Assembly: GCA_963720415.1 (NCBI GenBank)
Contig: CAVRFQ010000011.1
Location: 16,169-80,168 of the forward strand
Source of the DNA: an uncultured Solirubrobacteraceae bacterium
GTDB lineage: Bacteria > Actinomycetota > Thermoleophilia > Solirubrobacterales > Solirubrobacteraceae
DNA length: 64,000 nt
Reading direction: 5' to 3'
The notes below the pieces were generated by a model. That model was not told the origin of the DNA. It saw only the letters and a program-made list of their open reading frames with translations, and did not search any database. The translations under genes and the position numbers were made by a program. Positions within the stretch are counted from its first letter, which is position 1. Each line of letters opens with the position of its first letter. This document shows positions 11,204 to 26,368 of the stretch, piece after piece.

Positions 11204-11565
11204 AGCACCTCGACGCCCTCGCCGACCAGCTGATCCCGGCCGCGGACGGCATGCCGTCGGCGAGCGAGGCGGGCGCCACCGGGCGCTGGCTCGACGCCGT
11301 GCTCGAGGCGCGCCCCGACCTGCGGGCGCCGCTCGAGGCGCTCGAGGCGTGCCGCGACGAGTCGATCGCCGCGCTGCCCGAGCGCGACCCGGCGGGCTGG
11401 GCGGCGCTCACGTCCGCCGTCGTCGCCGCGTACTACTTCAACCCGGAGGTGTGCGAGCGGATCGGGTACGAAGGCCAGCGCGCGCTGCCGCTGGGCCCGC
11501 CGGATCACGAGGAGCTGCTGGTGTCCGTGGCCTCCCGGGGTCCGGTGTATCGTCCGGCCCCTTGA
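11200..11565 (+). CDS. gluconate 2-dehydrogenase subunit-3-like small subunit
   Basis: MKHLDALADQLIPAADGMPSASEAGATGRWLDAVLEARPDL.. resembles the small partner subunit of GMC dehydrogenases. ATGA overlap with the GMC stop. Confidence 0.7.
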   Translation: MKHLDALADQLIPAADGMPSASEAGATGRWLDAVLEARPDLRAPLEALEACRDESIAALPERDPAGWAALTSAVVAAYYFNPEVCERIGYEGQRALPLGPPDHEELLVSVASRGPVYRPAP

Positions 11566-12578
11566 CGTTCCGCCTCGCGGACCCTGAGAGCCGGTACGCC
11601 GCGGTCCGGCTGAGCTCGGACCTCCCGCTCTCGGACGAGGAGCGCTCGTTCACGCGCGCCGGCGACGAGTGGGTGCTCGAGATCGACCTGCCGCACCTCG
11701 CCCGGCTGGAGTACGAGCTGCAGGTGATCGGCGCCGACGGGGCGAGCGAGCACGTCCTCGACCCGGCGAACCCGCACCGCGCGCCCGGCGCCTTCGGTGA
11801 GAGGTCGGTCGTGCTCGCGCCCGGGTACGAGGCCCCGGCCTGGCTCTCCGCCCCGGTCGTCGAGGGCGCGTACTCCGAGTTCGCGATCCGCGGCCGCGGC
11901 CTCGGCGCCGCGGTGCACGGGTGGCTCTGGAGCCCGGTCGACGCGCCGCCCGAGCAGCCGCTCCCGCTGCTCGTGGCCCACGACGGCCCCGAGTACGACA
12001 AGCTCGCCGGGCTCACGCGCTACGCCGCCGGGCAGATCGCGGCCGGCACGCTGCCGCCGCACCGCGTCGCGCTGCTCGACCCCGGCCTGCGCAACGAGTG
12101 GTACTCGGCCTCCGCGCTCTACTCGCGGGCGCTCTATGTCGACGTGATCCCCGGCCTCAAGGAGGCGGTCGCCGTCGCGGGCCGCCCGGTCGGCATGGGC
12201 GCGAGCCTCGGCGCGCTCGCCATGCTCGTCGTCCAGCGCCGCGCGCCAGGCACCTTCGCCGGGCTGTTCCTGCAGTCGGGCAGCTTCTTCATCCCGCGCT
12301 TCGACTCCCAGGAGTCCGCCTTCCCGCGCTACGCGCGGATCGTGCGCGTGGTGCGGCGGATCCTGCGCGCCGGCGAGCATCCCGAGCCGCTGCCCGTCGC
12401 GCTGACGTGCGGCACCGCCGAGGAGAACGTGTTCAACAACCGCGTCATGGCCCGCGCGCTCGCCGGCCAGGGCTACGACGCGCGGCTCGACGAGGTCCCC
12501 GACATGCACAACTACACCGGCTGGCGCGACGCGTTCGATCCGCACCTGACGCGGCTTCTCGCAAGGATGTGGACATGA
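11562..12578 (+). CDS. esterase-family protein (enterochelin-esterase-like)
   Basis: Tail of ORF 11349..12578. N-terminal beta-domain, then PLLVAHDGPEY..GMGASLGALAM (GxSxG). TTG 11562 overlaps upstream TGA. Confidence 0.8.
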   Translation: MTFRLADPESRYAAVRLSSDLPLSDEERSFTRAGDEWVLEIDLPHLARLEYELQVIGADGASEHVLDPANPHRAPGAFGERSVVLAPGYEAPAWLSAPVVEGAYSEFAIRGRGLGAAVHGWLWSPVDAPPEQPLPLLVAHDGPEYDKLAGLTRYAAGQIAAGTLPPHRVALLDPGLRNEWYSASALYSRALYVDVIPGLKEAVAVAGRPVGMGASLGALAMLVVQRRAPGTFAGLFLQSGSFFIPRFDSQESAFPRYARIVRVVRRILRAGEHPEPLPVALTCGTAEENVFNNRVMARALAGQGYDARLDEVPDMHNYTGWRDAFDPHLTRLLARMWT

Positions 12579-13312
12579 CCCGGCACGCCGAGCTCTTCTC
12601 GCCCGCCATCGGGGCGTCGGGCAACGTGGTCGTCCACGGCCACTACGGCCGCCCCGTGCTCGCCTTCCCCGCCGAGGGCGGCAGCGCCTGGGACTACGAC
12701 CACGAGGGGATGGTCGCCGCCGTCCGCGAGCTGATCGAGGGCGGCCGCCTCAAGCTCTACTGCGTCGACGCGTTCGACGCCGCGACGTGGTCGAACCGCG
12801 CGCTGCCGCTGGAGGAGCGCGCCCGCACCCACGGCCGCTACGAGTCGTGGATCCTCGACCAGGTCGTCCCGTTCATCCAGGAGGACTCCTCCACGCACGA
12901 GGTCATCACGACCGGCGCGAGCCTCGGCGCGTACCACGCGGTGAACTTCGCGCTCAAGCGCGCCGATCTGTTCCCGGTTGCGATCGGGCTATCCGGAAAC
13001 TACGACCCTGCGACCTGGGACGCGTGGGGAGAGCGCGGAGAGGCCGTCTACTTCAACAACCCGATGGACTACGTCACCCACCTGCACGGCGATCACCTGG
13101 ACTGGCTGCGCTCGCGGCTCAGCCTGCTGCTGGTCTGCGGCCAGGGCATGTGGGAGGACACCACGGGATCGCTGGACGGCACCAAGCGCCTTGCCGCGCT
13201 GCTCGGGGAGAAGGGCATCCGGCACGAGCTCGACCTCTGGGGCCACGACGTCCCGCACGACTGGCCGTCGTGGCGCGCCCAGATGGCCCATCATCTCCCC
13301 CGGTTCTGCTGA
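12575..13312 (+). CDS. esterase-family protein
   Basis: MTRHAELFSPAIGASGNVVVHGHYGRPVLAFPAEGG..TTGASLGAYHAVNFALK (GxSxG). ATGA overlap with upstream stop. Confidence 0.8.
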   Translation: MTRHAELFSPAIGASGNVVVHGHYGRPVLAFPAEGGSAWDYDHEGMVAAVRELIEGGRLKLYCVDAFDAATWSNRALPLEERARTHGRYESWILDQVVPFIQEDSSTHEVITTGASLGAYHAVNFALKRADLFPVAIGLSGNYDPATWDAWGERGEAVYFNNPMDYVTHLHGDHLDWLRSRLSLLLVCGQGMWEDTTGSLDGTKRLAALLGEKGIRHELDLWGHDVPHDWPSWRAQMAHHLPRFC

Positions 13313-14559
13313 TGAGCGACACGCGACACCTGATCGGGCTCCTGCTCGGCACCGAGGAGGACTGGCCGCGCGCCTTCGAGACGCTGCTGGACCGCGTCGG
13401 CCCGGTCAAGGACGCGTCCGGCACCACGCATCGCGTCGACGTCGAGCGGATCACCATCGAGCCCTTCGACCTGCGCGACAAGCCGCGCTACGACCTCGTG
13501 GTCGACCGCCTCGCCTACTGGTACTTCGTCCCGCGCGAGTGGCTGAAGAAGGTCTCGCTGATGGACGACGTGTACCTGCTCAACAGCCCGTTCACGTTCC
13601 AGTCGATGGAGAAGCACGCCGCGTACTGCGCGATGCTGCGGCTCGGGCTCAAGGTCCCGCAGACCGTGCTGATCCCGCAGAAGGTCCCGCCCGACAACGA
13701 GCGCTTCGCGTACACCGCGGCCAAGTACAACCAGCCGTTCGACCTCGAGGAGATCGCCGCCCGGATCGGCTACCCGCTGTTCATGAAGCCCTATGACGGC
13801 GGCCAGTGGGTCGGCGTGACCCACATCTCCGGGCCCGAGGAGCTCAAGCGCGCGTACGACGAGTCCGGCCAGCGGCTCATGCACCTGCAGGCGGCGGTCG
13901 ACGGCTTCGACGTCTTCGCCCGCTCGCTCTCGATCGGCGCCGAGACGATGGTCATGAAGTTCCGCCCCGACCTCCCGATGCACGACCGCTACGCGGTCTC
14001 GCACGACTTCCTCACGCCGGAGACGGGCGAAGAGGTGCTGACGATCAGCCGCCTCATCAACGCGTTCTTCCGCTGGGAGTTCAACTCGTGCGAGACGCTC
14101 GTGCGCGGGACCGAGGCGCACCCGATCGACTACGCCAACGCGTCGCCCGACGTGGCGGTCACCAGCCTGCACTACTACTTCCCGTGGGCGATGTCGGCGC
14201 TCCTGCGCTGGTGCATCTTCTGCGTCGTCACCGGCCGCGAGCCGCGGATGGACCTCGACACCCGGCACTACTTCGAGATCGGCGACCGCGAGGACCTCAC
14301 CTACGAGGAGAAGCTCGCTGCCTATCGCAAGCTCGCCGACGAGTACTTCGAGGTCGAGCGCTATCAGGACTTCTGCGACAGCCGGCTGCCGCACGTCGAC
14401 GAGCTGGTCTATGAATGGGTCTCATCCGCCGACTTCGACAACCTCCTCCTCGAGACGGTCACGAGCACCTACCCCAGGCATGAGCAGGAGCAGTTCATCG
14501 CACACTTCCGAGGCCTGATCGGGCAGTGGGTGCGCGAGCGGCAGCCGACGCCTGGGTGA
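13312..14559 (+). CDS. ATP-grasp-like protein of unknown function
   Basis: MSDTRHLIGLLLGTEEDWPRAFE..IGYPLFMKPYDGGQWVGVTHISGPEELKRAYDESG..MHLQAAV.. with a long C-terminal extension. TGATG overlap with upstream stop. Confidence 0.8.
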   Translation: MSDTRHLIGLLLGTEEDWPRAFETLLDRVGPVKDASGTTHRVDVERITIEPFDLRDKPRYDLVVDRLAYWYFVPREWLKKVSLMDDVYLLNSPFTFQSMEKHAAYCAMLRLGLKVPQTVLIPQKVPPDNERFAYTAAKYNQPFDLEEIAARIGYPLFMKPYDGGQWVGVTHISGPEELKRAYDESGQRLMHLQAAVDGFDVFARSLSIGAETMVMKFRPDLPMHDRYAVSHDFLTPETGEEVLTISRLINAFFRWEFNSCETLVRGTEAHPIDYANASPDVAVTSLHYYFPWAMSALLRWCIFCVVTGREPRMDLDTRHYFEIGDREDLTYEEKLAAYRKLADEYFEVERYQDFCDSRLPHVDELVYEWVSSADFDNLLLETVTSTYPRHEQEQFIAHFRGLIGQWVRERQPTPG

Positions 14560-15354
14560 CCGGCAGCACCGTCCAGTCCGGGTGGCCGGGCATCGGCGGC
14601 GTCGTCGTCCCGTAGACCCACGCCCGCAGGAACGAGCGCAGGTCGCGACCGGAGACCTTCGAGGCGAGCGCGATGAAGTCGCCGGTCGAGGCCGACTCGC
14701 CCTCGTAGCGCCGCAGCCACTCGTGCTCGACGCGGTCGAACGCGCGCTGACCGATCTTCTGGCGCAGCGCGTAGAGCACGAGCGCCCCGCCTGGATAGAC
14801 GTTCCGGCGGGCACGTCGAGCGCGAAGGAGAACGTCGCCTTGTCGCTCGGGTGGTCGTTGGACGGGAAGATGTCGTGCGCGAGGTCCGGCTGCGCCGACA
14901 TGGCGGTGCCGTCCGGCGTCACGAAGAACGCCACGCTGACGTCGGCGTCGGTCGGCACCGCGGTGAAGCGCGCGCGGACCACGAAGACCTCGTGGTCGCG
15001 CAGCGCCCGCCCGGGCGTGACGACCAGCTCCTCGCCGGCGCGGGTCCAGCTCGCGGCGCGTCCGTCGACCGTGACGCCGGCGACGCTCTCGCCGGCGAAG
15101 TCGAGGTTGAAGCGTGAGAGGGCCTGCGTCGCGCGCGCGACGATGGTGACCCTCCCGTCGATGGGCTGCGCCGGCGCGCTGGTCGCGTAGCGCAGGTCGA
15201 GGTGGTAGTGGAGGGCGTCGTAGCCCCCGTTCCCCAGGCCGGGGAAGAGCCGGTCGTCCACGCTCGCGGCGCCGGGCGTCGGCCGCTGCGAGGCGGCGGC
15301 CGGCGTGACGGATACGGCGAGGAGGACGGCGGCGAGCACGATGGCGTACCGCAT
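14495..15354 (-). pseudogene. M1-family metallopeptidase with catalytic core deleted
   Basis: Signal peptide MRYAIVLAAVLLAVSVTPAAAS, then the M1 N-terminal domain (DRLFPGLGNGGYDALHYHLDLRY..ATFSFALDVPAG). The frame then changes and continues as the M1 C-terminal region (NVYPGGALVLYALRQKIGQRAFDRVEHEWLRRYEGESASTGDFIAL..MPGHPDW, ORF 14495..15367). No GxMEN/HExxH segment lies between them. Junction at about 14800-14806. Confidence 0.65.
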
Positions 15355-15370
15355 CGGCCGACGCCAACCG

Positions 15371-15400
15371 GCCGCCGCCCCTCCGGTGAAGGGCGGCGGC
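15371..15400 (-). terminator. GC hairpin after M14 gene (GCCGCCGCCC-10 nt-GGGCGGCGGC)
   Basis: 10-bp perfect stem located 22 nt after the M14 stop (15422-15424) on the minus strand. No U-tract. Confidence 0.4.
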
Positions 15401-15421
15401 ACGATTCCGGACCCCGATTAC

Positions 15422-17782
15422 TCAGTCGGCCCGAACGCAGGAGTCGCGCAGGTCCAGCTCGCGGCGCTCGCCGCGGGCGACGGCCACCTGGCGGGCCGAG
15501 CGGATGGTGCCGTCGGCGTCCTCGCAGAACAGCGTCCAGGTCTCCGCCCGGGCCGGCTGGAACGCCTCCGGGCCCTCGAAGGTCACGCTGCCGGTCCACG
15601 GCTCCGCGCCCGCGAAGTTGACCACCCGGACGACGTACTCGCCGGGCCGCGGATCGCCGAGCACGACCTGCTCGAAGCTCGTCGTGCCCTGGGCCGAGCT
15701 GCCGACCTCGACGCCGTCGCGCAGCACGCGGACGTCGTAGTCGCTGACGGGCGAGGGCCACTCCACGCGGATCGTGGCCCGCGCGTTGTCGATCCCCTCA
15801 CCGGCCGGGACCGTGATCACGTGGTCTTCGTAACACGTCTCCGGCGGGTCGTCGAAGTTCGCGCACGGGGTCGACTCGCCGCGCGGGGCGAACGACGCCG
15901 GCGGGCTCGGGTCGCCCGTCGCCTCGCGGCCGCGCTCCTGCGCCACCAGCGGGCGGGTCGACTGGTTCACGTGCCACTCGAACGCCCCGTCCTCGCCGGC
16001 CTGCATCGTGCTGTCGAGCGTGTCGGTGAACGTCGTGTCCTGCGACGTCGGGGTCTCGAACGTCTTGCGCAGGCGCAGCACCGCGCCCGCGGGCGCCGTG
16101 CCCGTGAGGACCGCGTGCTTGGACGCGTCGGCCGTGCTCTCCTGCGCGAGGAAGTACGCGGCCCGGTTGCCGCCCTCGTACTCGGCGACCGTCTCCGCGA
16201 ACGGCGGGTGGAAGTGCTCCGGCCCGATCTCGAACGTGAAGCCGAGGCCGCCGGTGGCGTAGTAGCTCCAGTCCTCGGTCGTGCCGGTGGTGTCGTAGAG
16301 CTGGTAGCTGAGCTGGCTCGCGTAGCCGTTCTCGGCGGCCATCGCGTCGCCCAGCGCCTTGTAGATCGGCTCGTCCGGCGTGAGGCCCTGGGCCTGGATC
16401 CCGGGCGGGCGCAGCACGAGGTTGGAGAACGTGTGGTTGGTGATCAGCGTGGTCACCTGGCGCGACGCGACCAGGTCGCGCACGTTCCGGGTCTCCGGCT
16501 CGGAGAACGGACCGGTGCCCCAGTAGGTCTCGTTGGTCGGGTCGCCGGACGCGCCGGCGCCGCCCCAGAAGCCGCCGTAGTTGCGGTTGGGGTCCACGCC
16601 CGCGCTGGCGAGGCCGAACGCCGGCTGCAGGCAGCTGCCGGCCGCTTCGCCGGTGACCAGGCGGCAGTTCTTGCGCCGGTACTCGTTCGGGTGGGTGAGG
16701 ATGTTGATGGTCTCCTCGTCCGCGGTGCCGCCACGCCCGTCGCCGGCGCCGTAGAGCTCGCCGGCCTCGCGCGAGGCGTTGAAGCCGTCGGGGTTCACGA
16801 CCGGGACGACGATCGTGCGCGTCGTCTCGACCAGCCGCCGCGTCCTGGCGTCGCCGCGGCGATGGCCGAGGATCAGCTCGTACGCCCACTCGATCGCGTG
16901 CTCGGCCGACGGCCACTCGCGCGCGTGGTGCGCGCCCATCTGCAGGAACACCGGCTTGCCGTCACGCGCGCCCGGGTTCGTCGTGATCTCGATGCCCTCG
17001 ACCGGGCGCCCCTCGTACGTCGCGTGGTTGAGCGTGATCGGCTTGACGAGGTCCGGGTGCTCGCGCGCGAGGCGCTTCATGTCCTCGCCGTAGTCGAACA
17101 GCCGGCGGTACGTCGTGCGCCCGCTGGGAAGCTCGGAAGCGGTCGTCGTGGCGTCGAACGCCGCGTCGGCCCGGCGGTCGCGGCGGCCCTGCGCCGTGAG
17201 GTCCGCGATCCGCGTCGTGAAGGAGAAGCCCGCGGCGCGCAGCCTCTGCGCGTCCGCCGCGCCGTGCAGCACCACGTCGAGGAAGCCGTCGCCGCCGTGC
17301 TCCGTGACGTCGAGCCCCGAGCTCGCGAGCTGCTGGGCGCGCTCGCGCGTCGGCGTGGCCACGCGCACGAGCGAGGCCGGCTCGGCGCTGCCGGCCCGCA
17401 CGCGCTCGGTGGCGACGTCGAGCGACGCGCTGCCGGCGCCGCCGGAGAGCCGGCACGCCTGCACGGTCAGCGTCGCGGCGCCGGTCACGAAGCCCTGCGC
17501 GAGCTCGCGGCCGCCGCGGTAGGCCGAGCCCGCGACCAGCCGGCCGGTCAGCGTGTCGAACACGGCCAGGTCCCAGTCTCCGGCGCCGCCGTCGAGCCGG
17601 GCGGTGACCGTGCCCGCGCCGGCGGCGAGGATCGTCCGTTGCGCGTACCCGCCGCCGGCGCGCAAGAGCTTCGCCGTGCAGCTGCGCTCGACCGCCGTGG
17701 GCACCGTCACCGTCGCGGCGCTCGCGGGCGCCGCGCAGACCAGCGCCGCCGCCACGGCCGCCGGGAAGAGGAGTCGTCTCAT
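15422..17782 (-). CDS. secreted M14-family zinc carboxypeptidase with N-terminal PPC-like domain
   Basis: Signal peptide MRRLLFPAAVAAALVCAAPASA. M14 motifs QMGAHHAREWPS and IVVPVVNPDGF. 786 aa. Confidence 0.9.
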   Translation of the reverse strand: MRRLLFPAAVAAALVCAAPASAATVTVPTAVERSCTAKLLRAGGGYAQRTILAAGAGTVTARLDGGAGDWDLAVFDTLTGRLVAGSAYRGGRELAQGFVTGAATLTVQACRLSGGAGSASLDVATERVRAGSAEPASLVRVATPTRERAQQLASSGLDVTEHGGDGFLDVVLHGAADAQRLRAAGFSFTTRIADLTAQGRRDRRADAAFDATTTASELPSGRTTYRRLFDYGEDMKRLAREHPDLVKPITLNHATYEGRPVEGIEITTNPGARDGKPVFLQMGAHHAREWPSAEHAIEWAYELILGHRRGDARTRRLVETTRTIVVPVVNPDGFNASREAGELYGAGDGRGGTADEETINILTHPNEYRRKNCRLVTGEAAGSCLQPAFGLASAGVDPNRNYGGFWGGAGASGDPTNETYWGTGPFSEPETRNVRDLVASRQVTTLITNHTFSNLVLRPPGIQAQGLTPDEPIYKALGDAMAAENGYASQLSYQLYDTTGTTEDWSYYATGGLGFTFEIGPEHFHPPFAETVAEYEGGNRAAYFLAQESTADASKHAVLTGTAPAGAVLRLRKTFETPTSQDTTFTDTLDSTMQAGEDGAFEWHVNQSTRPLVAQERGREATGDPSPPASFAPRGESTPCANFDDPPETCYEDHVITVPAGEGIDNARATIRVEWPSPVSDYDVRVLRDGVEVGSSAQGTTSFEQVVLGDPRPGEYVVRVVNFAGAEPWTGSVTFEGPEAFQPARAETWTLFCEDADGTIRSARQVAVARGERRELDLRDSCVRAD

Positions 17783-17818
17783 GCCCGCGGGAACGCGCGC
17801 GGGCGCGGAAACTGGCGC

Positions 17819-20248
17819 TCAGCGGCCGATGCGCAGCGCCGAGTCCTCGATCGTCGCGAGCCCGTCCATGCCGCCGAGGGCGGTCTCGGGCCCGAGGCCG
17901 CCCTCCGATCCGAGGAAGACCACCGCCGCGTCGTCGAGGCTCACCGGCTCCGCGACGCCGACCACGAGGTCGAGGATGCGGTCGCCGTTCACGTCGAGCA
18001 GCGACAGCGACTCGCCGAAGGCCGCGCCCTTCGCGGCGTCGTGCTCGAGCGTCAGCGTGTCGGCCTTGCCCTCGATCGAGCGCGCGCCGTGGATGACGGC
18101 GACCGCGCCCGCGGCGCCGGAGTAGCGCGCGCCGACGATCACGTCCCCCAGCCCGTCGCCGTTCGTGTCGCCGGCCTCGACCGCGTGCCCGAACTCGGTG
18201 CCGCCCTCGACCGGCAGGCCGGCGAGGTCCTCCGTGACGACGATCGGCTCGGCCACCGGCCCGTCCTCGCCGGCGCCCCACAGCCGCACCTCGCCCTCGC
18301 GCGCGGTCTCGCCGTCCCACGGCGCCTGGTCGCCCTGGACGACCTCCAGGTACCGGTCCCCGTTGAGGTTGCCGATGGCGAGCGCCGAGGTCCCCCAGCC
18401 GCCGGAGTCCGGGAACTCGGTGCAGGCGGTCGGTCCGTCGGGTGTCCCGGGGCAGTACGCGATGTGGCCGATGAGCTCGTTGTCGGGCTCGCCCATCGTG
18501 CCCTCGACGAGGTCGAGGTTGCCGTCGCGGTCGACGTCCCCGACCTCGAGGAAGCGCCCGAAGCCGACCGTCTCGTTCTCCGGGGGCTCGAGTCGCCGCG
18601 CGCGGTCGGCCGCCAGGCCGTCGGCGCCGCCGAAGAAGACGTGCACGGCGCCGTCGAGGTCGTTGCGCCGGTCCGCCGGCGATCCGGGGGTGCCGACCAC
18701 GAGGTCCGCGAAGCCGTCGCGGTCCAGGTCGCCGGCCGTCAGCGCGAACCCGAACGCCTCCGCCTGCGGCGGGGCCGACAGGAGGGTCGGCCGCAGCGGC
18801 GCGCCCCGGCGGGCCGGCGCCGACTCGTCCCCGTAGAGGAGCGCAACGATGTTGCGGCCGGGCGCGCCGATGGCCAGGTCCTGCTCGCCGTCGTCGTCGA
18901 AGTCGGCGCTCGCCAGCGCGGCGCCGTAGCGGTCGCCGCGTCGTCCGGCGCCCAGGCCTGCCGCCTCGGAGCTGATCAGCGAGGCCTCCCCGTTGTCGGG
19001 GCCGGGGTGGACGAGGACCATCCCGGCGCGCTCCGTGCCGCCTTCCGGCGAGCCGCCGGAGGCGCCCAGCACCACCTGCTGGCTGCCGTCGCGGTTGAAG
19101 TCGTACGGCGCGAACCGCTCGTCGTCCCCGCCGCCGCCGGCCAGCACGACCACGCCGGCCGCGACGGCGGCCACGGCAGCGGCCGCGCCGGCGGCCGCCA
19201 CCGCCGGGCGGCGCCACCATGGCGCAGGAGGCGGAGGTCGAGGCGGTGGTGGCGGAGGCGGGTCGCGCTTGCCGAGCGCCTCGCGCGCCGCCGCCTTCAC
19301 CGAGTCGCTGTCGTCGCGCGCCAGGCCCTCGAGCGTGTCGCGCGCGAGCGCCGCGAGCCCCGGCGCGCCCGAGCCCATGAGCGCGGCCAGCTCGCTCACC
19401 GCTCCCAGGCGGATCCCGGCCAGGTTGCTGCGCACCGCCGTGCCGAGCTCCGGCGGCAGCTTGACCCGGCGCGTGCTGTGGGCGATCACGATGTCGCCGC
19501 TCACCTCGCCGCTCATCCGCGGCGTCTGGTGCGCCGAGATCTCGCGCACCCGCGAGCGCGCGTAGTCGTAGAGGTCGTCGACCGAGATCGCGCCGTCGTC
19601 GTCGGTGTCCGCCTCGCCGGTGCGCAGGCCCTCGATCAGCACGCGGGTGAACAGCGACCCCGGCTCGGCGGCGTCCAGCTCGTTGATCCCGGTGGCGGGG
19701 TCGGACTCCTCGAACGCGTACTCGAGCTCGCTCGACGCCGTCAGCGTCACCCGCCCGTGGCCGTCGAAGCGATGCTCGACGTCGACGCTCAGCGCGCTCT
19801 TGGGCACGAGCCCCTTGCCGAACGCCCCGCTGTGGCAGCAGTCGAGCACCACGACGATCGACCTGGCGCGGCTGGAGTCCATCGCCTCGTTGACGAAGCG
19901 GTCCTCGATGGCGGTCGTCCGCACCCACTCGAGCTCGGTGCTCGCCGTCGCGAAGTAGAAGCGCCGGTCCTGCGACAGCACGCCGTGGCCGGAGAAGTAG
20001 AAGAGCAGCAGGTCGTTGCGCGCGCTGTCGCGGAAGAACTCCTCGATCCGCTTCTTGATCGTGTCGGTGGGCTCGTCGACGAGCTGCTGGACGTCGAAGC
20101 CGCCGATCGCCGGGTCGCCGAGCACGCCGGCGAGCGCCGCGACGTCACCGGTCGGCGCCCGCAGCGAGGCCAGGCCGGGATCGCCGTAGGTGCCGCTGGC
20201 GATCAGCAGCGCGCGGCGCGAGCGTCCCGGCGCGTCATCCGCCGCCAT
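17819..20248 (-). CDS. caspase-like (peptidase C14) - HEAT repeat - TM - 7x FG-GAP beta-propeller protein
   Basis: N-terminal RRALLIASGTY..LLLFYFSGHG (His)..VVVLDCCHSG (Cys). HEAT-like LAGIRLGAVSELAALM..SVKAAAREALGK. Poly-Pro linker, then TM WWRRPAVAAAGAAAAVAAVAAGVVVLAG. Seven FG..gD.d.DG..DL.vG repeats (e.g. FGFALTAGDLDRDGFADLVVGTPG). Confidence 0.9.
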   Translation of the reverse strand: MAADDAPGRSRRALLIASGTYGDPGLASLRAPTGDVAALAGVLGDPAIGGFDVQQLVDEPTDTIKKRIEEFFRDSARNDLLLFYFSGHGVLSQDRRFYFATASTELEWVRTTAIEDRFVNEAMDSSRARSIVVVLDCCHSGAFGKGLVPKSALSVDVEHRFDGHGRVTLTASSELEYAFEESDPATGINELDAAEPGSLFTRVLIEGLRTGEADTDDDGAISVDDLYDYARSRVREISAHQTPRMSGEVSGDIVIAHSTRRVKLPPELGTAVRSNLAGIRLGAVSELAALMGSGAPGLAALARDTLEGLARDDSDSVKAAAREALGKRDPPPPPPPRPPPPAPWWRRPAVAAAGAAAAVAAVAAGVVVLAGGGGDDERFAPYDFNRDGSQQVVLGASGGSPEGGTERAGMVLVHPGPDNGEASLISSEAAGLGAGRRGDRYGAALASADFDDDGEQDLAIGAPGRNIVALLYGDESAPARRGAPLRPTLLSAPPQAEAFGFALTAGDLDRDGFADLVVGTPGSPADRRNDLDGAVHVFFGGADGLAADRARRLEPPENETVGFGRFLEVGDVDRDGNLDLVEGTMGEPDNELIGHIAYCPGTPDGPTACTEFPDSGGWGTSALAIGNLNGDRYLEVVQGDQAPWDGETAREGEVRLWGAGEDGPVAEPIVVTEDLAGLPVEGGTEFGHAVEAGDTNGDGLGDVIVGARYSGAAGAVAVIHGARSIEGKADTLTLEHDAAKGAAFGESLSLLDVNGDRILDLVVGVAEPVSLDDAAVVFLGSEGGLGPETALGGMDGLATIEDSALRIGR

Positions 20249-20594
20249 GGCGCGCCAGGAACGTCTCGACGAGCCGCCGCTGGTCGGCGTCGGACGCGTT
20301 CTCGACCGTGAGCTTGTCGCCGTCGATCTCGAGCGTGACCGCGGCCTTCGGGTGGCGCTCGAGCCACGCCTGGAGGGCCATGATCATCGGCGGCACGGTG
20401 CCGACGAGCGTCACCACCAGCTGCGCCCATTCGACGGCGCCGCCCTTGGCGCCGGCGGGCGCCGGCATCGACGGGTGCGACACGTCGTCCACGCCGCGGT
20501 CGAGCATCTCCTCCCGCAGGCGCCAGGCGAGATCCGCTCGCTCCTCGTCGTCGCTGTCCGGAAAGCCCACGACCTGCAGGCGGATCTCGGTCAT
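20235..20594 (-). CDS. small EACC1-like protein (effector-associated constant component; assignment from memory)
   Basis: Start set at ATG 20594 (GGAG 7 nt upstream): MTEIRLQVVGFPDSDDEERADLAWRLREEML..PAGAKGGAVEWAQLVVTLVGTVPPMIMALQAWLERHP..VTLEIDGDKLTVENASDADQRRLVETFL. 119 aa. Its stop lies 14 nt inside the caspase gene. Confidence 0.65.
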   Translation of the reverse strand: MTEIRLQVVGFPDSDDEERADLAWRLREEMLDRGVDDVSHPSMPAPAGAKGGAVEWAQLVVTLVGTVPPMIMALQAWLERHPKAAVTLEIDGDKLTVENASDADQRRLVETFLARHGGG

Positions 20595-20697
20595 GACAGC
20601 TCCGACCGTAACCCCTTTCGTCAGCCGCGCGCAAGCGCGCGCCGCTCCGCGGCGCGCAGCCACGAGCCGCGCACCATCCCGCTGCCGGGGCGGACGA

Positions 20698-20877
20698 CGA
20701 GCCAAGTAGCGGGCGGGCGATCCGCAGCGAGCGCAGCCCGAGCAGGACCGTGGCGAGGCGCATCTCGGCGACCGTCACCGCGCGGGCGGCCGCCAGGGCG
20801 GCCTCGGGCGAGGCGGCGACGGCGCGCTCGTGCCGGTCCCGCCAGTCGGGATCGGGCAGGACGTCGTCGAGCGTCAT
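20698..20877 (-). pseudogene. possible 5' fragment of an SRPBCC-like/hypothetical gene
   Basis: The first ~60 codons of ORF 20203..20877 (MTLDDVLPDPDWRDRHERAVAASPEAALAAARAVTVAEMRLATVLLGLRSLRIARPLL) look protein-like. The rest is junk and runs into the EACC1-like gene. Confidence 0.3.
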
Positions 20878-20894
20878 GAACGGATGATCGCGGT

Positions 20895-20922
20895 GGAGGG
20901 GCCGCCGGGCGGCGGCCCCTCC
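20895..20922 (-). terminator. GC hairpin after large M14 gene (GGAGGGGCCGCC-gggc-GGCGGCCCCTCC)
   Basis: 12-bp perfect stem and 4-nt loop, 13 nt after the stop at 20935-20937 on the minus strand. No U-tract. Confidence 0.45.
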
Positions 20923-20934
20923 CCGCGAGCGTGC

Positions 20935-23900
20935 TCAGTCGAGCAGGTGGCGCACGGTGCGGCGCATCACCGCGTTGCGCTCGGCCTGCGTCGCGATCCC
21001 CTCGAACCCGAAGCCGAAGAGCAGCGAGTCCGGGGTGCTGATCGTGGCGCCGACCGGGAACCCGGAGTCGTCCGTCCGGATCCAGTTGTTGGCGTTCGCC
21101 CCGCTGGACGCGGGCTGGGCGGGAGTCCAGCCGTCGAACCCGGCCTCGAACGACGTGGTGCTGCCGTCCGGCAGCACGAAGTCGTCGAGGAAGACGCCGA
21201 GGTTCTGGACGGACCAGTCGCTGACGTAGGCGATCGAGATCTCGACCGTCTCGCCGGCGTAGCCGTCCAGGTCGATGCTCCACTGCTGCCAGCCGGCGGA
21301 GTTGCCGGAGGCGCCGTTCCACACGCCGGTCGAGCCCGTCGACGTGCACGTGTCCGGCGGGCCGGGCACGAACGTCGCGTAGTGGTCGATCTGCGGGTGG
21401 ATGTCCCGGAGCGCGGCGTCGCAGCTGTCACCGGGGTCGGTGTTGGTGTGCCCGTTGGCGTCCGGCAGCGTCGTCCAGTCGTCGCCGCCCGGCGTGCGGG
21501 CCTCCACGAACAGGTGGTCCCAGTCCGGCTCGGTGTCGTACGAGGTCCAGAACGTGAAGTCGCCGCCGCCCGCGGGCACGGCGATCTCGCGCGTCAGGCG
21601 CTTGTACGTCACGTCGGCGATCTGGGAGTACACGTACTGCGTGCCCGTGCGCGGCGAGAACGGCCCGCCGGGCTTGTCCCACCGGGACGACGGCCAGCTG
21701 TTGAACTGCGGGAACTGGCTCCGCGGCAGGATGCCGCTCGTCGAGACGAACGACGCGCTCATGCCCTGGTTGTCGGCGCTCTCCGGGCCGCCGAAGCCCC
21801 ACGTCAGGCCCGCGAACGGATCGTCGAGCCCGGCGATGTCGAACTGGTTGCCCTCCTCGTCGAAACCGTCGCCCGGCGCTATCGCGTACGCGCCGAACCA
21901 GTACTCGAGCACGTCCCCGACGAGGTCGCTCTGCGGCGCCCCGAAGAGCCCGAGGCAGCGCCGGGGCTCGAACGCCGGGTTCGGCTCCCCGTCGATGAAG
22001 CACGGGCCCTCGCCCTTCGGGTCGTAGAACTGCTGGCCCACCGCGCCGCCGGACACGAACTGGTGGCCGGCGAAGGCGCCGGTGTAGAGCACCCTGCCGC
22101 CCTCGTTCATGTACGAGCGGAACTCGAGGATCTCGTCGAGCGCGAGCCGGTCCGCGTTGCCCGCGCCCCAGCCCGTGCGACGGGTGACGGCGTCGTCGCC
22201 CGTGTACCAGATGACCGCGTCGTAGTGGCTGAGCACGCCGAGGTGGTCCGGCGCCGTGCGCCCGCGGGCGTCGACGTCGTACACGTCGGCCTTCACGCCG
22301 TTGGCCCGGAGCGCGTCGAGGTAGTAGTCGAGGTAGTGCGGACCGGGCGTCTGCACGGGCGAGGCGCCCGTGTAGTCCTCGGCCGCCACCACGAGCACCT
22401 TGCGGTTCGAGTCGGACACGACCTCGTAGGTGAACGAGTCGGAGCGGTACTCCCTGCGCCCCTCGTCGCCCTCGAACCAGACCTTGACCCGGTCGCCGGG
22501 GTCGCCGCCCTTCACCACGCCGCGCAGCTCGTGGTAGTAGACGGCGGCCGGCTTGTACTTCTCGCCGCCGCGCCACTCCTTGGTGCTCGCGCTCTGCGTC
22601 CGGCCGTTGTTGATCCGGTACTTGAGCGTGACGTTCCCGAGGCTCCGCTTGGCCAGCACGTGCACCGGCTGCGGGTCGCCATAGGAGTAGTCGAACGAGA
22701 AGTTCGCGCCCGGGATGCCGCCCTTGTACGGGTCGTCGCTCTCGAGGTAGAACGGCTTGGTCTCGATGCCCAGCGACGAGTCCGGGTCGTCCGGGTCGTC
22801 CGCGGACTCGACCACCGACTTCGCGAACGGCAGGTTGCGCTCGAACTCGGCCTGCACCAGCGCCTCGTCGTCGGGGAACACGAAGCCGCAGCCCTCGCAG
22901 CCCTCGGACAGCTCGGGCGTCCACGCGAGCGCGCCGCGCTCGGCGTGGGCGTAGTCCGTCGTCTCGCCGTTGGTGACGTAGAGGACGTCGGAGCTCAGGC
23001 CCGGATGGAAGTCCGGGATCGCCGGCTCGTCGAGGTTGCCCGACAGGGCGTAGTAGATCGGGTCGTCGGCGGTCGCCGTGCCGATCTGCCAGCCCTCGGC
23101 GTAGAGCAGCCACTGCCCGGCCGAGTGCCAGTTGACGTGGAAGCGGAAGTCGAGGTCGTCGAGCAGGCCCTTCAGGGCCTTGGTCTCGCGCTCGGAGCCG
23201 GCGCTCGGCCCGCGGTAGGTCTCGCTCGAGAAGATCGAGGACGAGCCCTCCTCGTCGTACTTCCAGTGCGCGGGCCAGTTGCGGTTCGGGTCGACGCCGT
23301 CGCCGATGTTGACGATGCCGTCGCCGTTGTTGTCGCGCAGGTTCTTGCGCCACAGCCGCTCGCCCTCGAACGTGTACTGATAGCCGTCCGGGTTGGCGCT
23401 CAGCACGAACCACAGCTCGGTCTCGCCGAGCAGGTCGCGGACGTGCCGGTTGCCCGAGTTGTAGCGGTCGATGTAGTAGTGCATGAGCCGCCGGTTGACC
23501 TCCGGCGTGATCCACTCGCGGGCGTGCTGGTTGGAGCTGAAGAGCACGGCGTCCCGCTTTCCGTCCTTCACGGAGCGGGCGTCCTTGGTGACCTTCAGCG
23601 CGAGGATCTCGCGCCCGTTGAGCGTGGTCCCGAGCTTCACCAGCTTGGTGAGCTTCGGGTTCTCGCGCGCGGTCTCGCGCAGCTCGTCGCGGAGGCCGCC
23701 GGGCTCGTCCCACGAGCGCCACACGTTGAAGCCGTTGGCCGCCTGGCGAGCGGCGAACTGCTGCACGGTCAGCCCACCCTTCACGCGCGTGAGCTGCGCG
23801 TTCACGCCGTCCGCGGCGAGCTTGTCGCGCTGGTCGGCGGTCATGATCAGGTCGACCTCGGTCCCGCCGCGCACCTTCCTCGCGCCCTCGAGATCGAAGC

Positions 23901-24042
23901 CCGAGGCGGTCACGGCCGCCAGCCCGCGCGCGTCGACGATCGCCGTGTAGGCGTCGAGGCGATCGCGCGCGGCGGCGCCTGCAGGCGCGGCCACGACCAG
24001 GAGGGCAGCCGCAACCGCGGCAGCCAGCAAGCACCTACGCAT
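20935..24042 (-). CDS. large secreted M14-family carboxypeptidase with ~600-aa C-terminal extension
   Basis: Start set at ATG 24042 (GGGGAGGGG SD upstream). Signal peptide MRRCLLAAAVAAALLVVAAPAGAA. Motifs SSNQHAREWITPE, VLSANPDGYQY, DPNRNW, WHSAGQWLLY. 1035 aa. Confidence 0.9.
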   Translation of the reverse strand: MRRCLLAAAVAAALLVVAAPAGAAARDRLDAYTAIVDARGLAAVTASGFDLEGARKVRGGTEVDLIMTADQRDKLAADGVNAQLTRVKGGLTVQQFAARQAANGFNVWRSWDEPGGLRDELRETARENPKLTKLVKLGTTLNGREILALKVTKDARSVKDGKRDAVLFSSNQHAREWITPEVNRRLMHYYIDRYNSGNRHVRDLLGETELWFVLSANPDGYQYTFEGERLWRKNLRDNNGDGIVNIGDGVDPNRNWPAHWKYDEEGSSSIFSSETYRGPSAGSERETKALKGLLDDLDFRFHVNWHSAGQWLLYAEGWQIGTATADDPIYYALSGNLDEPAIPDFHPGLSSDVLYVTNGETTDYAHAERGALAWTPELSEGCEGCGFVFPDDEALVQAEFERNLPFAKSVVESADDPDDPDSSLGIETKPFYLESDDPYKGGIPGANFSFDYSYGDPQPVHVLAKRSLGNVTLKYRINNGRTQSASTKEWRGGEKYKPAAVYYHELRGVVKGGDPGDRVKVWFEGDEGRREYRSDSFTYEVVSDSNRKVLVVAAEDYTGASPVQTPGPHYLDYYLDALRANGVKADVYDVDARGRTAPDHLGVLSHYDAVIWYTGDDAVTRRTGWGAGNADRLALDEILEFRSYMNEGGRVLYTGAFAGHQFVSGGAVGQQFYDPKGEGPCFIDGEPNPAFEPRRCLGLFGAPQSDLVGDVLEYWFGAYAIAPGDGFDEEGNQFDIAGLDDPFAGLTWGFGGPESADNQGMSASFVSTSGILPRSQFPQFNSWPSSRWDKPGGPFSPRTGTQYVYSQIADVTYKRLTREIAVPAGGGDFTFWTSYDTEPDWDHLFVEARTPGGDDWTTLPDANGHTNTDPGDSCDAALRDIHPQIDHYATFVPGPPDTCTSTGSTGVWNGASGNSAGWQQWSIDLDGYAGETVEISIAYVSDWSVQNLGVFLDDFVLPDGSTTSFEAGFDGWTPAQPASSGANANNWIRTDDSGFPVGATISTPDSLLFGFGFEGIATQAERNAVMRRTVRHLLD

Positions 24043-24086
24043 ATGTGTCCCCTCCCCACTGGAAATGGAGTAGGCGGTGAAGCCTT

Positions 24087-25352
24087 TCACTCGGTCGCGC
24101 CGTGCGCAACTTCCTGATAGCGCGAGTCGTACGACCACAGGCGCGGCATCGCCGCCGTCAGCGCGGCGATGCCGCCCACGCAGACCACGCCGCCCGCCAC
24201 CACCGAGGCCCGCAGGCCGAGCAGCGCGGCCGCGGCGCCCGCCTCGGCGTTGCCGAGCAGCGGCCCCGAGGACCACGAGATCATCTCCAGGCCGGCGAGC
24301 CGCCCGCGCAGGCGGTCGGGGATCGTCTCGTTCCAGATCGTCGCCCGGAACACGCCGGAGATCGCGTCCGCCCCGCCGGCCAGCGCCAGGAAGAACAGCG
24401 CGAGCCACAGCTCATGGGCGAGCCCGAACGCCGCGATCGCGACGCCCCAGCCGCACGCGGCCAGAACCACGGCGCGCCCGTGGCGGTGCACCCGCGCGGT
24501 CCAGCCGCTCGCGGCCAGGACGATCACCGCGCCGGCCGACGGCGCCGCGTAGAGCAGGCCGACCACCGCCCCGCCGCCGTAGTCGGCGGCCAGCGCCGGG
24601 AAGAGCGCCATCGGCATGGCGAAGAACATGGCGACCATGTCGACGAGGTAGGTGCCGAGCAGCTCCTGCCGCGAGCGGGCGAACTGCAGGCCCTCGACGA
24701 TCGCCTTCAGCCCGAGCGGCTGGCGCTCGGTCGGCGGCGGCGTGCGCATGGCGGCCAGCGCGGCGAGCGAGATCACGAACGTCGCGAGGTCGACGGCGTA
24801 CGTGACGCCGTAGCCGGCCGACGCGATCAGCACGCCCGCGACCGCCGGCCCGGCCAGCGATGCGAGGTTCGAGACCCCCCAGCTGAGCGCGCTCGCGGCC
24901 TTCAGCTCGTCGCGCTCCACGAGCCGCGGCAGCATGGCGTCGAGCGGCGGCCGGCGGATGGCCGAGAAGCCCGCGATCAGCGCCGCGGCCACGTAGAGGA
25001 ACCAGACGTGGGGATCCTCGAGCGTCGCGTTGAGCACCAGCCCGCCGACCGCCACGATGGCACCGACCTCGGCGAGCATGACGAGCCGCCGGCGGTCGAA
25101 CGCGTCGGCCAGCGCGCCGCCGACCAGCGCGAGCACGAGGATCGGCACGAACTCGGCGATCCCGAGCAGCCCGACGGCGACGGTCGAGCCGGTGAGCTCG
25201 TAGACCTGCACCGGGACCGCGACCAGCGTGATCATCGAGCCGAGCAGCGAGGTCGCCTGCCCGAAGATGAGCAGGCGCAGCTCCCGCCGCCGGCGCAGGA
25301 GGTCCGCGTCGACGGCGAGCGCGCGCAGGATCCGCGCGAGGCGCTGCCTCAC
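24087..25352 (-). CDS. MFS transporter
   Basis: 421 aa, multi-TM profile (LIFGQATSLLGSMITLVAVPVQVYELTGS.. EntS-like). GTG 25352 overlaps upstream TGA (GTGA). Confidence 0.9.
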   Translation of the reverse strand: MRQRLARILRALAVDADLLRRRRELRLLIFGQATSLLGSMITLVAVPVQVYELTGSTVAVGLLGIAEFVPILVLALVGGALADAFDRRRLVMLAEVGAIVAVGGLVLNATLEDPHVWFLYVAAALIAGFSAIRRPPLDAMLPRLVERDELKAASALSWGVSNLASLAGPAVAGVLIASAGYGVTYAVDLATFVISLAALAAMRTPPPTERQPLGLKAIVEGLQFARSRQELLGTYLVDMVAMFFAMPMALFPALAADYGGGAVVGLLYAAPSAGAVIVLAASGWTARVHRHGRAVVLAACGWGVAIAAFGLAHELWLALFFLALAGGADAISGVFRATIWNETIPDRLRGRLAGLEMISWSSGPLLGNAEAGAAAALLGLRASVVAGGVVCVGGIAALTAAMPRLWSYDSRYQEVAHGATE

Positions 25353-26368
25353 TTCAGGCTGACGGAGCGGCCGCTCTCGGCGGCCTCGTACAGCGCTTCG
25401 ATGGCACGGGCCTGGCCGACGGCGTCCCCGCGGCCGAGCATCGGGGCGCGCCCTTCGCGGATCGCGGCCGAGAAGTCCTCGAGCTCGCGCCCGTAGGGAT
25501 CGGTCGCCTCGACCGGCACGTCCTCGCCGTCGCGCGTGACGCGGGGTCTGCCGCCGTGCCAGGGGTCGTACGAGACCAGCGTGCCGCCCTCGCCCACGAC
25601 CTCGATCATGCCGCGCGGCGGCACGTCGAAGCCGCAGTCGAAGACGCCGAGCACGTCACCGTCGAACCGCAGGTTCCCCGTGAAGCGGAAGTCGACCCCG
25701 CCGCCGCCCTCGACCGCCTCGCCGCTCACGCGCAGCGGCTCGCCCGCGAGCAGCCGCAGCGCGCTCACGCAGTAGCAGCCGACGTCCATCAGCGACCCGC
25801 CCTCGAGCTCGCTCTGCCAGCGCACGTTGGCGGGATCGTCGGGGAGCGGGAAGCCGAACGCGGCGCGGACCACGCGCAGCGGCGCGATCTCCCGCGCGAG
25901 GCTGGCGAGCAGCTCCGTCTGCGGGTGGTAGCGCCACATGAACGCCTCCATCAGCAGCCGCCCGGAGCTCTCGGCCGCGTCGAACGCCGCCTCCACGTCG
26001 GCCGCGCGCCGGCTCAGGGGCTTCTCGCACAGCACGTGCTTCCCCGCCTCGACCGCCTTGATCGACCACGGCACGTGCAGCGAGTTGGGCAGCGGGATGT
26101 AGACGGCCTCGACGTCGTCGTCGGCCAGCAGCTCCTCGTAGGAGCCGTGCACGCGGCCGATGCCGTGCTCGGCCGCGAACGCCTCGCCGCGCCCACGATC
26201 GCGCGAGCCCACAGCGACGATCTCCACGTTCGCGGCCGTCCCCGCACCCACCAGCACCTTCTCGGCGATGTGCGCGGTGGAGAGGATGCCCCACCGCACC
26301 GTACCGCCCGGGGGTATGTCCCCCAGGGACATACCCCCAGAGGAGTCGCCCTCCGGGCGACGCCTCAT
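25349..26368 (-). CDS. Gfo/Idh/MocA-family oxidoreductase
   Basis: Tail of ORF 25349..27520: ..TVRWGILSTAHIAEKVLVGAG..VAVGSRD..HVLCEKPLS... ATG 26368 overlaps the permease stop (ATGA). An alternative ATG at 26332 is buried in a hairpin. Confidence 0.85.
   Translation of the reverse strand: MRRRPEGDSSGGMSLGDIPPGGTVRWGILSTAHIAEKVLVGAGTAANVEIVAVGSRDRGRGEAFAAEHGIGRVHGSYEELLADDDVEAVYIPLPNSLHVPWSIKAVEAGKHVLCEKPLSRRAADVEAAFDAAESSGRLLMEAFMWRYHPQTELLASLAREIAPLRVVRAAFGFPLPDDPANVRWQSELEGGSLMDVGCYCVSALRLLAGEPLRVSGEAVEGGGGVDFRFTGNLRFDGDVLGVFDCGFDVPPRGMIEVVGEGGTLVSYDPWHGGRPRVTRDGEDVPVEATDPYGRELEDFSAAIREGRAPMLGRGDAVGQARAIEALYEAAESGRSVSLK
26310..26338. repeat. perfect hairpin GGGGGTATGTCCC-cca-GGGACATACCCCC
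   Basis: 13-bp perfect inverted repeat with a 3-nt loop, read directly. On the minus strand it contains the AUG at 26332. Confidence 0.9.

Follow-up and report, generated by a model that had tools for sequence, protein, structure and literature searches.

The DNA analysed here (the window) is a stretch of 64,000 nucleotides from an uncultured Solirubrobacteraceae bacterium, with a G+C content of ~73%, and it carries three consecutive open reading frames (ORFs) on the minus strand. The first (20594 to 20235) encodes a small protein of 119 aa belonging to the EACC1 family, the second (20248 to 17819) encodes a protein of 809 aa in which a caspase-like C14 protease is joined through a transmembrane (TM) helix to an FG-GAP beta-propeller, and the third (17782 to 15422) encodes an M14 carboxypeptidase of 786 aa. 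The stop of the EACC1 gene lies 14 nt within the start of the caspase gene, and a gap of 36 nt separates the caspase gene from the M14 gene. These coordinates, the overlap and the gap are as given in the original prediction, which took the three genes for one uncharacterised protease-based sensing or conflict unit. We find that the EACC1 and caspase genes are the part of this arrangement that is conserved. We consider it probable, though well short of certain, that they form a cell-suicide or defence module of the two-gene type described by Kaur et al. 2020, with an extracellular sensor and with EACC1 being cut into a pore-former. The proteins used for comparison throughout are KrEACC1 and KrAvs12 from Ktedonobacter racemifer, with sequences taken from the supplement of Evans et al. 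2025 (bioRxiv 10.1101/2025.11.14.688446). The features of the pair, including those placed by AlphaFold2 (AF2) models, are as follows.

20603-20634, minus strand: promoter-like element TTGC-N18-GGTTACGGTCG (-10-like TACGGT), ending 10 nt before the EACC1 ATG
20235-20594, minus strand: EACC1 gene (119 aa), a predicted latent pore-forming effector from its PF19953 match and its homology to KrEACC1
20424-20483, minus strand: EACC1 linker, residues 38-57, VSHPSMPAPAGAKGGAVEWA, with a predicted cleavage site after E55, preceding the hydrophobic helix (alignment, AF2)
17819-20248, minus strand: caspase-TM-FG-GAP receptor protease gene (809 aa), its start overlapping the EACC1 stop by 14 nt
19478-20218, minus strand: cytoplasmic caspase (C14) domain, residues 11-257 (NF047832, catalytic dyad, AF2)
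19985-19987, minus strand: His88 codon, in the motif FYFSGHG
19835-19837, minus strand: Cys138 codon, in the motif LDCCHSG (Cys137/138)
19571-19609, minus strand: EF-hand-type loop DTDDDGAISVDDL within the caspase domain, residues 214-226 (PROSITE-like EF-hand pattern)
19277-19453, minus strand: four-helix HEAT-like segment between caspase and membrane, residues 266-324 (AF2 helices 266-272, 277-291, 296-309 and 315-324)
19124-19207, minus strand: single TM helix, residues 348-375, with a proline-rich stretch before it (Kyte-Doolittle hydropathy over 19 residues, KD19, 2.33; AF2 helix 350-370)
17822-19111, minus strand: extracellular seven-bladed FG-GAP (integrin-alpha-like) beta-propeller with DxDxDG-type loops and invariant Cys599/Cys609, the predicted sensor

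The central protein matches Peptidase_C14 (PF00656, E 8e-16) and, over residues 11-236, the NCBIfam model NF047832, 'caspase, EACC1-associated type' (166.5 bits against a cutoff of 140), and its C-terminal half matches the Pfam FG-GAP family (E 9e-34). The small protein matches EACC1 (PF19953) over residues 14-110 with an E of 2.1e-10 and 41 bits, against a cutoff of 23.6. The domains expected for a conflict-type module of EACC1 and a C14 caspase are thus present, as is the expected M14 domain of the third protein; the one profile that fell short is HEAT_2, which scored 18.2 bits (E 0.003) on the isolated juxtamembrane segment, under its cutoff of 27.7, and gave no match at E <= 0.01 on the whole protein. 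The His/Cys dyad, reported as intact in the original prediction, is indeed so: His88, Cys137 and Cys138 are invariant in the alignment of 21 orthologues, and His88 and Cys138 align with His101 and Cys152 of KrAvs12. There are four cysteines in the whole receptor protein, Cys137/138 at the active site and the pair Cys599/Cys609, and all of them are invariant in these orthologues. Among PDB sequences, the caspase domain matched only the metacaspase MCA2, and that marginally (E 0.007).

An AF2 model built on the orthologue alignment (mean predicted local distance difference test, pLDDT, 81) shows a caspase fold at residues 11-257, helices at 266-324, a disordered proline-rich stretch, the TM helix at 350-370 and the propeller at 392-807, the last modelled at pLDDT ~90. 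Two loops of the caspase domain (140-153 and 173-194) are conserved yet disordered in the model. Arginine on the N-terminal side of the TM helix and four acidic residues on its C-terminal side indicate an N-in orientation, which predicts that the caspase lies in the cytoplasm and the C-terminal half outside the cell. The division into an inner caspase and an outer FG-GAP propeller that had been proposed for this protein is in this way borne out as a prediction by the charges around the TM helix, the AF2 model and Foldseek. The EF-hand-type loop is flanked by helices at 199-210 and 223-237, and its pattern is found in 84 of the 88 EACC1-type caspase copies in the loci that we fetched, which come from several phyla; it is absent from the KrAvs12 caspase. 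From its pattern the loop is a possible Ca2+ site, and it would hint, speculatively, at control of the caspase by Ca2+.

The part that we assign to EACC1 follows from its alignment with the one member of the family that has been characterised. Evans et al. 2025 (bioRxiv 10.1101/2025.11.14.688446) found that the KrAvs12 caspase cleaves KrEACC1, with a putative cut site at Asp49 that was placed by a model; that toxicity is confined to the C-terminal fragment of KrEACC1; that cleaved EACC1 permeabilises liposomes; and that mutation of C152 in KrAvs12 abolishes the effect. We take ATG 20594 as the correct start of the window EACC1 gene, and not TTG 20705, because the homologues are nearly all 118-119 aa long and align from residue 1; PF19953 is present in all 192 of them. 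The alignment between the window EACC1 and KrEACC1 spans 108 residues (E 3e-4), and in it E55 of the window protein aligns with the putative cleavage residue Asp49 and stands just before the Trp with which the hydrophobic helix begins. All 26 orthologues have D or E at position 55. As modelled by AF2 (pLDDT 84), the window EACC1 consists of a strand and a helix, a linker at residues 40-57, and then strand-helix-strand-strand-helix, and the linker is the least confident part of the model (pLDDT 59-68). The predicted cut after E55 would release fragments of 6.0 and 7.0 kDa, as compared with 5.7 and 7.1 kDa for the Kr protein. The hydrophobic helix is conserved and holds many small residues (KD 1.62). 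A fold search of the model against the PDB gave no significant match, only a weak PII/ferredoxin-like resemblance (E 7e-3). The small protein had been put forward as a regulator or adaptor; its characterised homologue is cut by the protease and acts as a pore-forming effector of death, and the alignment of the window protein with it extends to the putative cleavage position. By analogy with that homologue, EACC1 is probably the effector and the substrate of the caspase rather than an adaptor.

Upstream of EACC1 the DNA of related loci cannot be aligned, except for one block, TTGC-N16-19-GGTTACGGTCG, which in the comparative alignment ends 9-10 nt before the EACC1 start. The motif occurs once per locus and always precedes EACC1 in 15 of the 17 loci most closely related to the window (L001-L014 and L017, among them L004, where EACC1 has been relocated), and it occurs in 0 of the other 144 loci out of the 159 that were compared in total. 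Judging from its sequence, it is probably a promoter with TTGC as the -35 and TACGGT (TANNNT type) as the -10 element, giving a near-leaderless mRNA, or else an operator for some regulator. From the position of the motif the unit would therefore start ~40 nt upstream of EACC1 and not at the hairpin 290 nt away. A scan with sigma-70 and terminator consensus sequences found no promoter, and its terminator-like matches did not exceed chance level.

Seven D/N-x-D/N-x-D loops mark the seven blades of the propeller, which, judging from these loops, is probably Ca2+-binding, and a Foldseek search with the modelled propeller finds the propellers of integrin alpha subunits (E 8e-15, TM-score 0.63-0.66). 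Mean pairwise identity among orthologues is 41% for the ectodomain, as opposed to 74% for the caspase part. At the distance of the closest full-length relatives, which are only 59-62% identical, the ratio of nonsynonymous to synonymous substitutions (dN/dS) of the ectodomain would be saturated. A search with the ectodomain alone shows that a related propeller is attached, via a TM helix, to N-terminal Ser/Thr kinases (P0250, P0252 and P0254; 35-38% identity over ~90% of the ectodomain), and the C-x9-C cysteine pair is also present in P0252. A related propeller is likewise fused to a histidine kinase (P0324). These Ser/Thr kinases resemble the window protein in that a cytoplasmic enzyme is followed by a TM helix and then by the propeller; all four kinases differ from it in having a kinase output and no EACC1 partner, and in P0324 the order is the reverse, with an N-terminal propeller and a C-terminal kinase. 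The pattern in these sequences is one of domain shuffling, in which a receptor ectodomain is reused with differing outputs. A fusion of a related FG-GAP propeller to trypsin was also seen (P0271).

To place the pair among its relatives we scanned one genome per species and obtained 79 loci with EACC1-type caspases. The closest relatives of the window are 17 loci (L001-L017), mostly labelled as metagenome-assembled genomes (MAGs) of Solirubrobacteraceae, which have the same synteny as the window and which we call FG-GAP loci; the propeller was matched by tblastn in 14 of them, the other three being contig-end or frameshifted copies. The regional order is ABC/PBP genes, MFS, the EACC1-caspase pair, a variable slot, ATP-grasp, two esterases and LacI. 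The pair is kept in all 17 FG-GAP loci, with EACC1 directly 5' of the caspase gene and overlapping it in 16 and directly 3' in L004. The slot that follows the pair is occupied elsewhere by an LbH acetyltransferase and another gene, by an aldolase and an oxidoreductase, or by nothing. Because the pair is kept in every FG-GAP locus while the slot holding M14 in the window varies, the conserved unit is the EACC1-caspase pair. Over the 79 loci, EACC1 was found directly upstream of 61 of the 84 caspase genes with an iterated hidden Markov model (HMM) of EACC1, and nine of the loci gave no EACC1 match. Several of the unpaired caspase genes sit in arrays of 2-4 with one EACC1. One such locus, L009 (7209-12502), has two caspase-TM-FG-GAP paralogues that flank one EACC1, and these are 75% identical in their caspase parts and 38% identical in their ectodomains. 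Related caspase domains were also found on actinobacterial and cyanobacterial plasmids, and in P0109 a TIR domain stands in place of the TM helix and FG-GAP behind a caspase domain that is 62% identical.

Some further observations on the homologues may be recorded here. In L004 (10001-12831) the order of the two genes is reversed, and EACC1, with its own promoter-like motif, lies 39 nt 3' of the caspase gene. In L009, L028, L035, L053, L054 and L072, 2-4 caspase-sensor genes form an array that has only one EACC1 gene. One protein of 886 aa (P0105, NCBI/JGI) was called as an in-frame EACC1-caspase-TM-FG-GAP fusion, which is either natural or a merged gene call. Five 'caspase-only' homologues (P0095, P0100, P0102, P0104 and P0107) were considered as sensor swaps and rejected, because they are MAG gene calls broken by frameshifts, with Arg-rich tails read out of frame; for three of them, length and start coordinate match L009, L012 and L014. 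Such calls are a warning of indel errors in assemblies of this kind.

Kaur et al. 2020 described EACC1 as a two-gene conflict system in which a 5' EACC1 gene is followed by a 3' caspase gene with more than 50 alternative C-terminal domains. In their survey the family associates statistically with conflict-type architectures, TM helices occur in 33% of the caspase proteins, and some of these have an extracellular PBP domain past the TM helices. The window fits the definition of that system in its 5' EACC1, its 3' caspase with a variable C-terminus, its actinobacterial host and its TM helix. The original prediction knew of no experimental work on a protein of this architecture, and this holds for the combination with a TM helix and FG-GAP; for the EACC1-caspase pair it has been superseded by Evans et al. 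2025. In the Kr system, as in the window, a small EACC1 gene directly precedes the gene of a protein whose N-terminal domain is caspase-like; the two are further alike in the alignment of the G-H-G and D-C-C motifs, and in the length class and layout of EACC1, with an acidic residue before the Trp of the hydrophobic helix. FG-GAP or propeller sensors are named neither in Kaur et al. 2020 (main text and one supplementary file) nor in the searchable text of Evans et al. 2025, and a literature search for bacterial caspases or metacaspases with FG-GAP returned nothing relevant. The EACC1-caspase family is thus already described, and an integrin-like extracellular sensor on it is undiscussed in the searchable literature.

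Taken together with the work on the distant Kr homologue, the features of the pair suggest how it might act. The receptor protease would sit in the membrane, with a propeller that probably binds Ca2+ outside, one TM helix, and the HEAT-like stalk and the caspase in the cytoplasm. A cue from outside the cell or from the envelope would bind the propeller, whereupon the receptors would cluster (probably by induced proximity) or change conformation and so switch on the caspase. The caspase would then cut the co-translated EACC1 in its exposed linker, most likely at E55/W56. The N-terminal 6-kDa piece, presumed to be inhibitory, would come off, and the C-terminal 7-kDa piece, with the hydrophobic helix, two strands and one helix, would oligomerise into membrane pores and cause depolarisation or killing. 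The outcome would be abortive infection or programmed death. Outside-in death signalling through the propeller is plausible because the model predicts a cytoplasmic caspase, a TM helix and an extracellular propeller, and because a related propeller is found on receptor kinases.

The same working principle is known from bacterial gasdermins with an adjacent protease and from caspase and gasdermin pyroptosis in animals, where a protease strips an inhibitory segment from a latent pore-former that then oligomerises in the membrane. EACC1 has no sequence or fold relationship to gasdermin. In the death receptors of animals and the extrinsic apoptosis that they start, an extracellular ligand acts on a membrane receptor, caspases are activated and the cell dies. 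The likeness to the window is an analogy only: here receptor and caspase are one polypeptide, death domains are absent, and the ectodomain is not homologous. A bolder version of the proposal, possible but tentative, is that the window protein is a bacterial 'death receptor', in which a polymorphic, integrin-like ectodomain would sense something outside the cell (a phage or its receptor-binding protein at the surface, damage to the envelope, or a neighbour that is not kin), and its own caspase would free a pore-forming executioner. If true, an extrinsic-apoptosis-like pathway would exist in a non-mycelial actinobacterial lineage, and the diverged ectodomains, together with the arrays that share one EACC1, would reflect diversified recognition specificity.

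Several points weigh against reading the pair as a suicide or defence module with an extracellular sensor. The Kr proteins are only ~21% identical to those of the window and are known from a preprint, and sensing there is the task of a cytoplasmic STAND/Avs ATPase, which responds to a phage tail-connector protein, and not of a TM helix and extracellular FG-GAP propeller as in the window. The residue before the cut (P1), which is Asp in the Kr protein, would be Glu in the window EACC1, and the Kr caspase has no EF-hand-type loop. Five residues N-terminal of E55, Lys50 is invariant, and from the sequence it could serve as an alternative, metacaspase-like cleavage site. The rapid divergence of the ectodomain could just reflect weak constraint, and the 36-nt spacing without a significant hairpin makes co-transcription of the M14 gene possible in the window genome. 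The locus also has a conserved chromosomal position among transporter, esterase and ATP-grasp genes, with no further defence genes nearby. No relatives were found in phage genomes, and PADLOC-DB v2, the scan for defence systems that had been proposed for this locus, returned only a match to a generic caspase model and called no system. The syntenic chromosomal position of the locus, its metabolic neighbours and the lack of defence genes, phage relatives and a PADLOC system speak against a classical mobile defence island, since mobile anti-phage islands show such a setting less often; the related caspase domains on plasmids point the other way.

The genes and signals on either side of the pair bear on the question of how far the unit extends, and are as follows.

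15422-17782, minus strand: secreted carboxypeptidase T-like M14 peptidase (PF00246, E 4e-49; carboxypeptidase T 1obr, E 3e-36)
20888-20928, minus strand: GC-rich hairpin 3' of the upstream M14 gene (free energy, dG, -43.1 kcal/mol, z -6.0, 0/200 shuffles as stable)
15366-15406, minus strand: GC-rich hairpin, 15 nt past the M14 stop (dG -37.3 kcal/mol, z -3.1, 0/200 shuffles as stable)
20935-24042, minus strand: another secreted M14 peptidase (~27% identity to the downstream M14), which carries an InhA-like MAM domain
14422-15354, minus strand: broken M1 peptidase remnant with a signal peptide, its N-terminal domain and the end of its catalytic domain in two frames

The original prediction had the two hairpins delimit a unit of three genes, in which the M14 enzyme would process an extracellular ligand of the propeller, the caspase would be the effector and EACC1 a regulator or adaptor. 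The three genes do share a strand, the caspase and M14 genes are 36 nt apart with only a short hairpin between them that is no better than shuffled sequence (z -0.36), and the strong hairpins, each confirmed as more stable than all 200 of its shuffles, bracket the whole stretch. M14 also lies directly 3' of the caspase gene in four of the 17 FG-GAP loci (L001, L007, L014 and L017), and the motif CGCCAGTTTC, directly past the caspase stop (17783-17818 on the minus strand of the window), is kept in all five M14-bearing loci, that is, in these four and the window. The protein has an N-terminal hydrophobic signal peptide (MRRLL...ASA) and an HxxE motif (HAREW), and is a generic enzyme of the carboxypeptidase T type. 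The triad is not conserved, however: 12 of the 17 FG-GAP loci have no M14 gene within 10 kb, and none of the 62 remaining EACC1-type loci has one. In L007, L014 and L017, where the spacer measures 80 nt, the M14 gene is preceded by a Shine-Dalgarno sequence of its own, which is lacking in the window and L001, and the characterised EACC1 is a substrate and executioner, not an adaptor (Evans et al. 2025). We regard a functional unit of three genes as very improbable. M14 is probably a lineage-specific neighbour outside the module, and would be an ordinary secreted peptidase that chances to fill the variable slot beside the pair in this sub-lineage.

Two other explanations accept the pair as the unit and differ in what it does. 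According to the model originally proposed for the EACC1 family by Kaur et al. 2020, a membrane-inserted EACC1 would be the sensor that activates the caspase, and the caspase would cleave itself and release the propeller as the effector. The conserved hydrophobic helix of EACC1, rich in small residues, would suit such a part, and the caspase loops 140-153 and 173-194 could be sites of autoprocessing. The later experiments of Evans et al. 2025 run in the reverse direction, with the caspase cutting EACC1 and the EACC1 fragment as the toxin; the propeller, of a Ca2+-binding type, has no obvious effector activity, and kinases employ a related ectodomain as an input domain, which makes this model decidedly unlikely for the window. 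Less easily set aside, although we still think it doubtful, is non-lethal housekeeping signalling at the envelope, in which a cue from the cell wall or the environment would lead to limited processing of EACC1 that tunes membrane physiology or development. The stable syntenic position throughout a family-level clade, beside transport and metabolic genes, would be expected from this, as would the strict conservation of a dedicated promoter-like motif and the lack of a PADLOC call; ordinary receptor kinases share the related ectodomain, and Evans et al. 2025 note fusions of EACC1 modules to parts that do not belong to defence, among them DnaK and EccC. Against it, the sole EACC1 that has been tested is strongly toxic once cleaved, the family has its statistical link to conflict-type architectures, and the tandem duplication of receptors with diverged ectodomains, as well as the plasmid-borne related caspases, are features like those of an arms race. 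A suicide or defence module consisting of EACC1 and the receptor caspase is the reading that we prefer.

The flanking hairpins are likely terminators, the one at 20888-20928 of the upstream M14 gene, where it likely also forms the upstream boundary of the module, and the one at 15366-15406 past the downstream M14 gene; a T-tract was found at neither of them. An Rfam scan of 14000-25500 (E <= 0.1) gave no match. Between the upstream hairpin and the promoter-like motif of EACC1 there is a spacer of ~250 nt (20635-20887, minus strand) that is missing in L001 and L011, where the gap is ~90-110 nt. The spacer contains an ORF fragment (20707-20877, minus strand) with an ATG at 20877 that begins MTLDDVLPDPDWRDRHERAV; the fragment has no Pfam match, and its N-terminal part has no counterpart in the related loci, so it may be a gene remnant. 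The upstream M14 gene is kept at its position in L001 and L011 only, and its start is probably ATG 24042, which has GGAGG upstream and opens a signal peptide, and not GTG 24408. The M1 remnant (14422-15354) is likely a pseudogene, with ~660 nt missing as compared with the intact copy in L005 (8020-9508).

On the plus strand, at 11349-14559, the window carries a trio of two esterases and an ATP-grasp-like gene, which is widespread in soil metagenome contigs (ATP-grasp 70-88% identical) and independent of the pair. We collected 80 metagenome contigs (L080-L159) anchored on this ATP-grasp gene, and the EACC1-caspase pair was present in 0 of ~23 more distant loci, which have at least 5 kb downstream and 70-81% ATP-grasp identity, the closer contigs being too short or ambiguous (L081, L108).

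For the annotation of such loci, these results imply that the unit consists of two genes, with EACC1 as effector and substrate, and that M14 is not to be annotated as part of the system. The sensors of bacterial suicide and defence systems that have been characterised nearly all detect intracellular cues, whereas the predicted sensor of the window member faces outside. The locus would offer a compact system in which to test outside-in death signalling in bacteria, and also the way in which several diverging receptors share one executioner.

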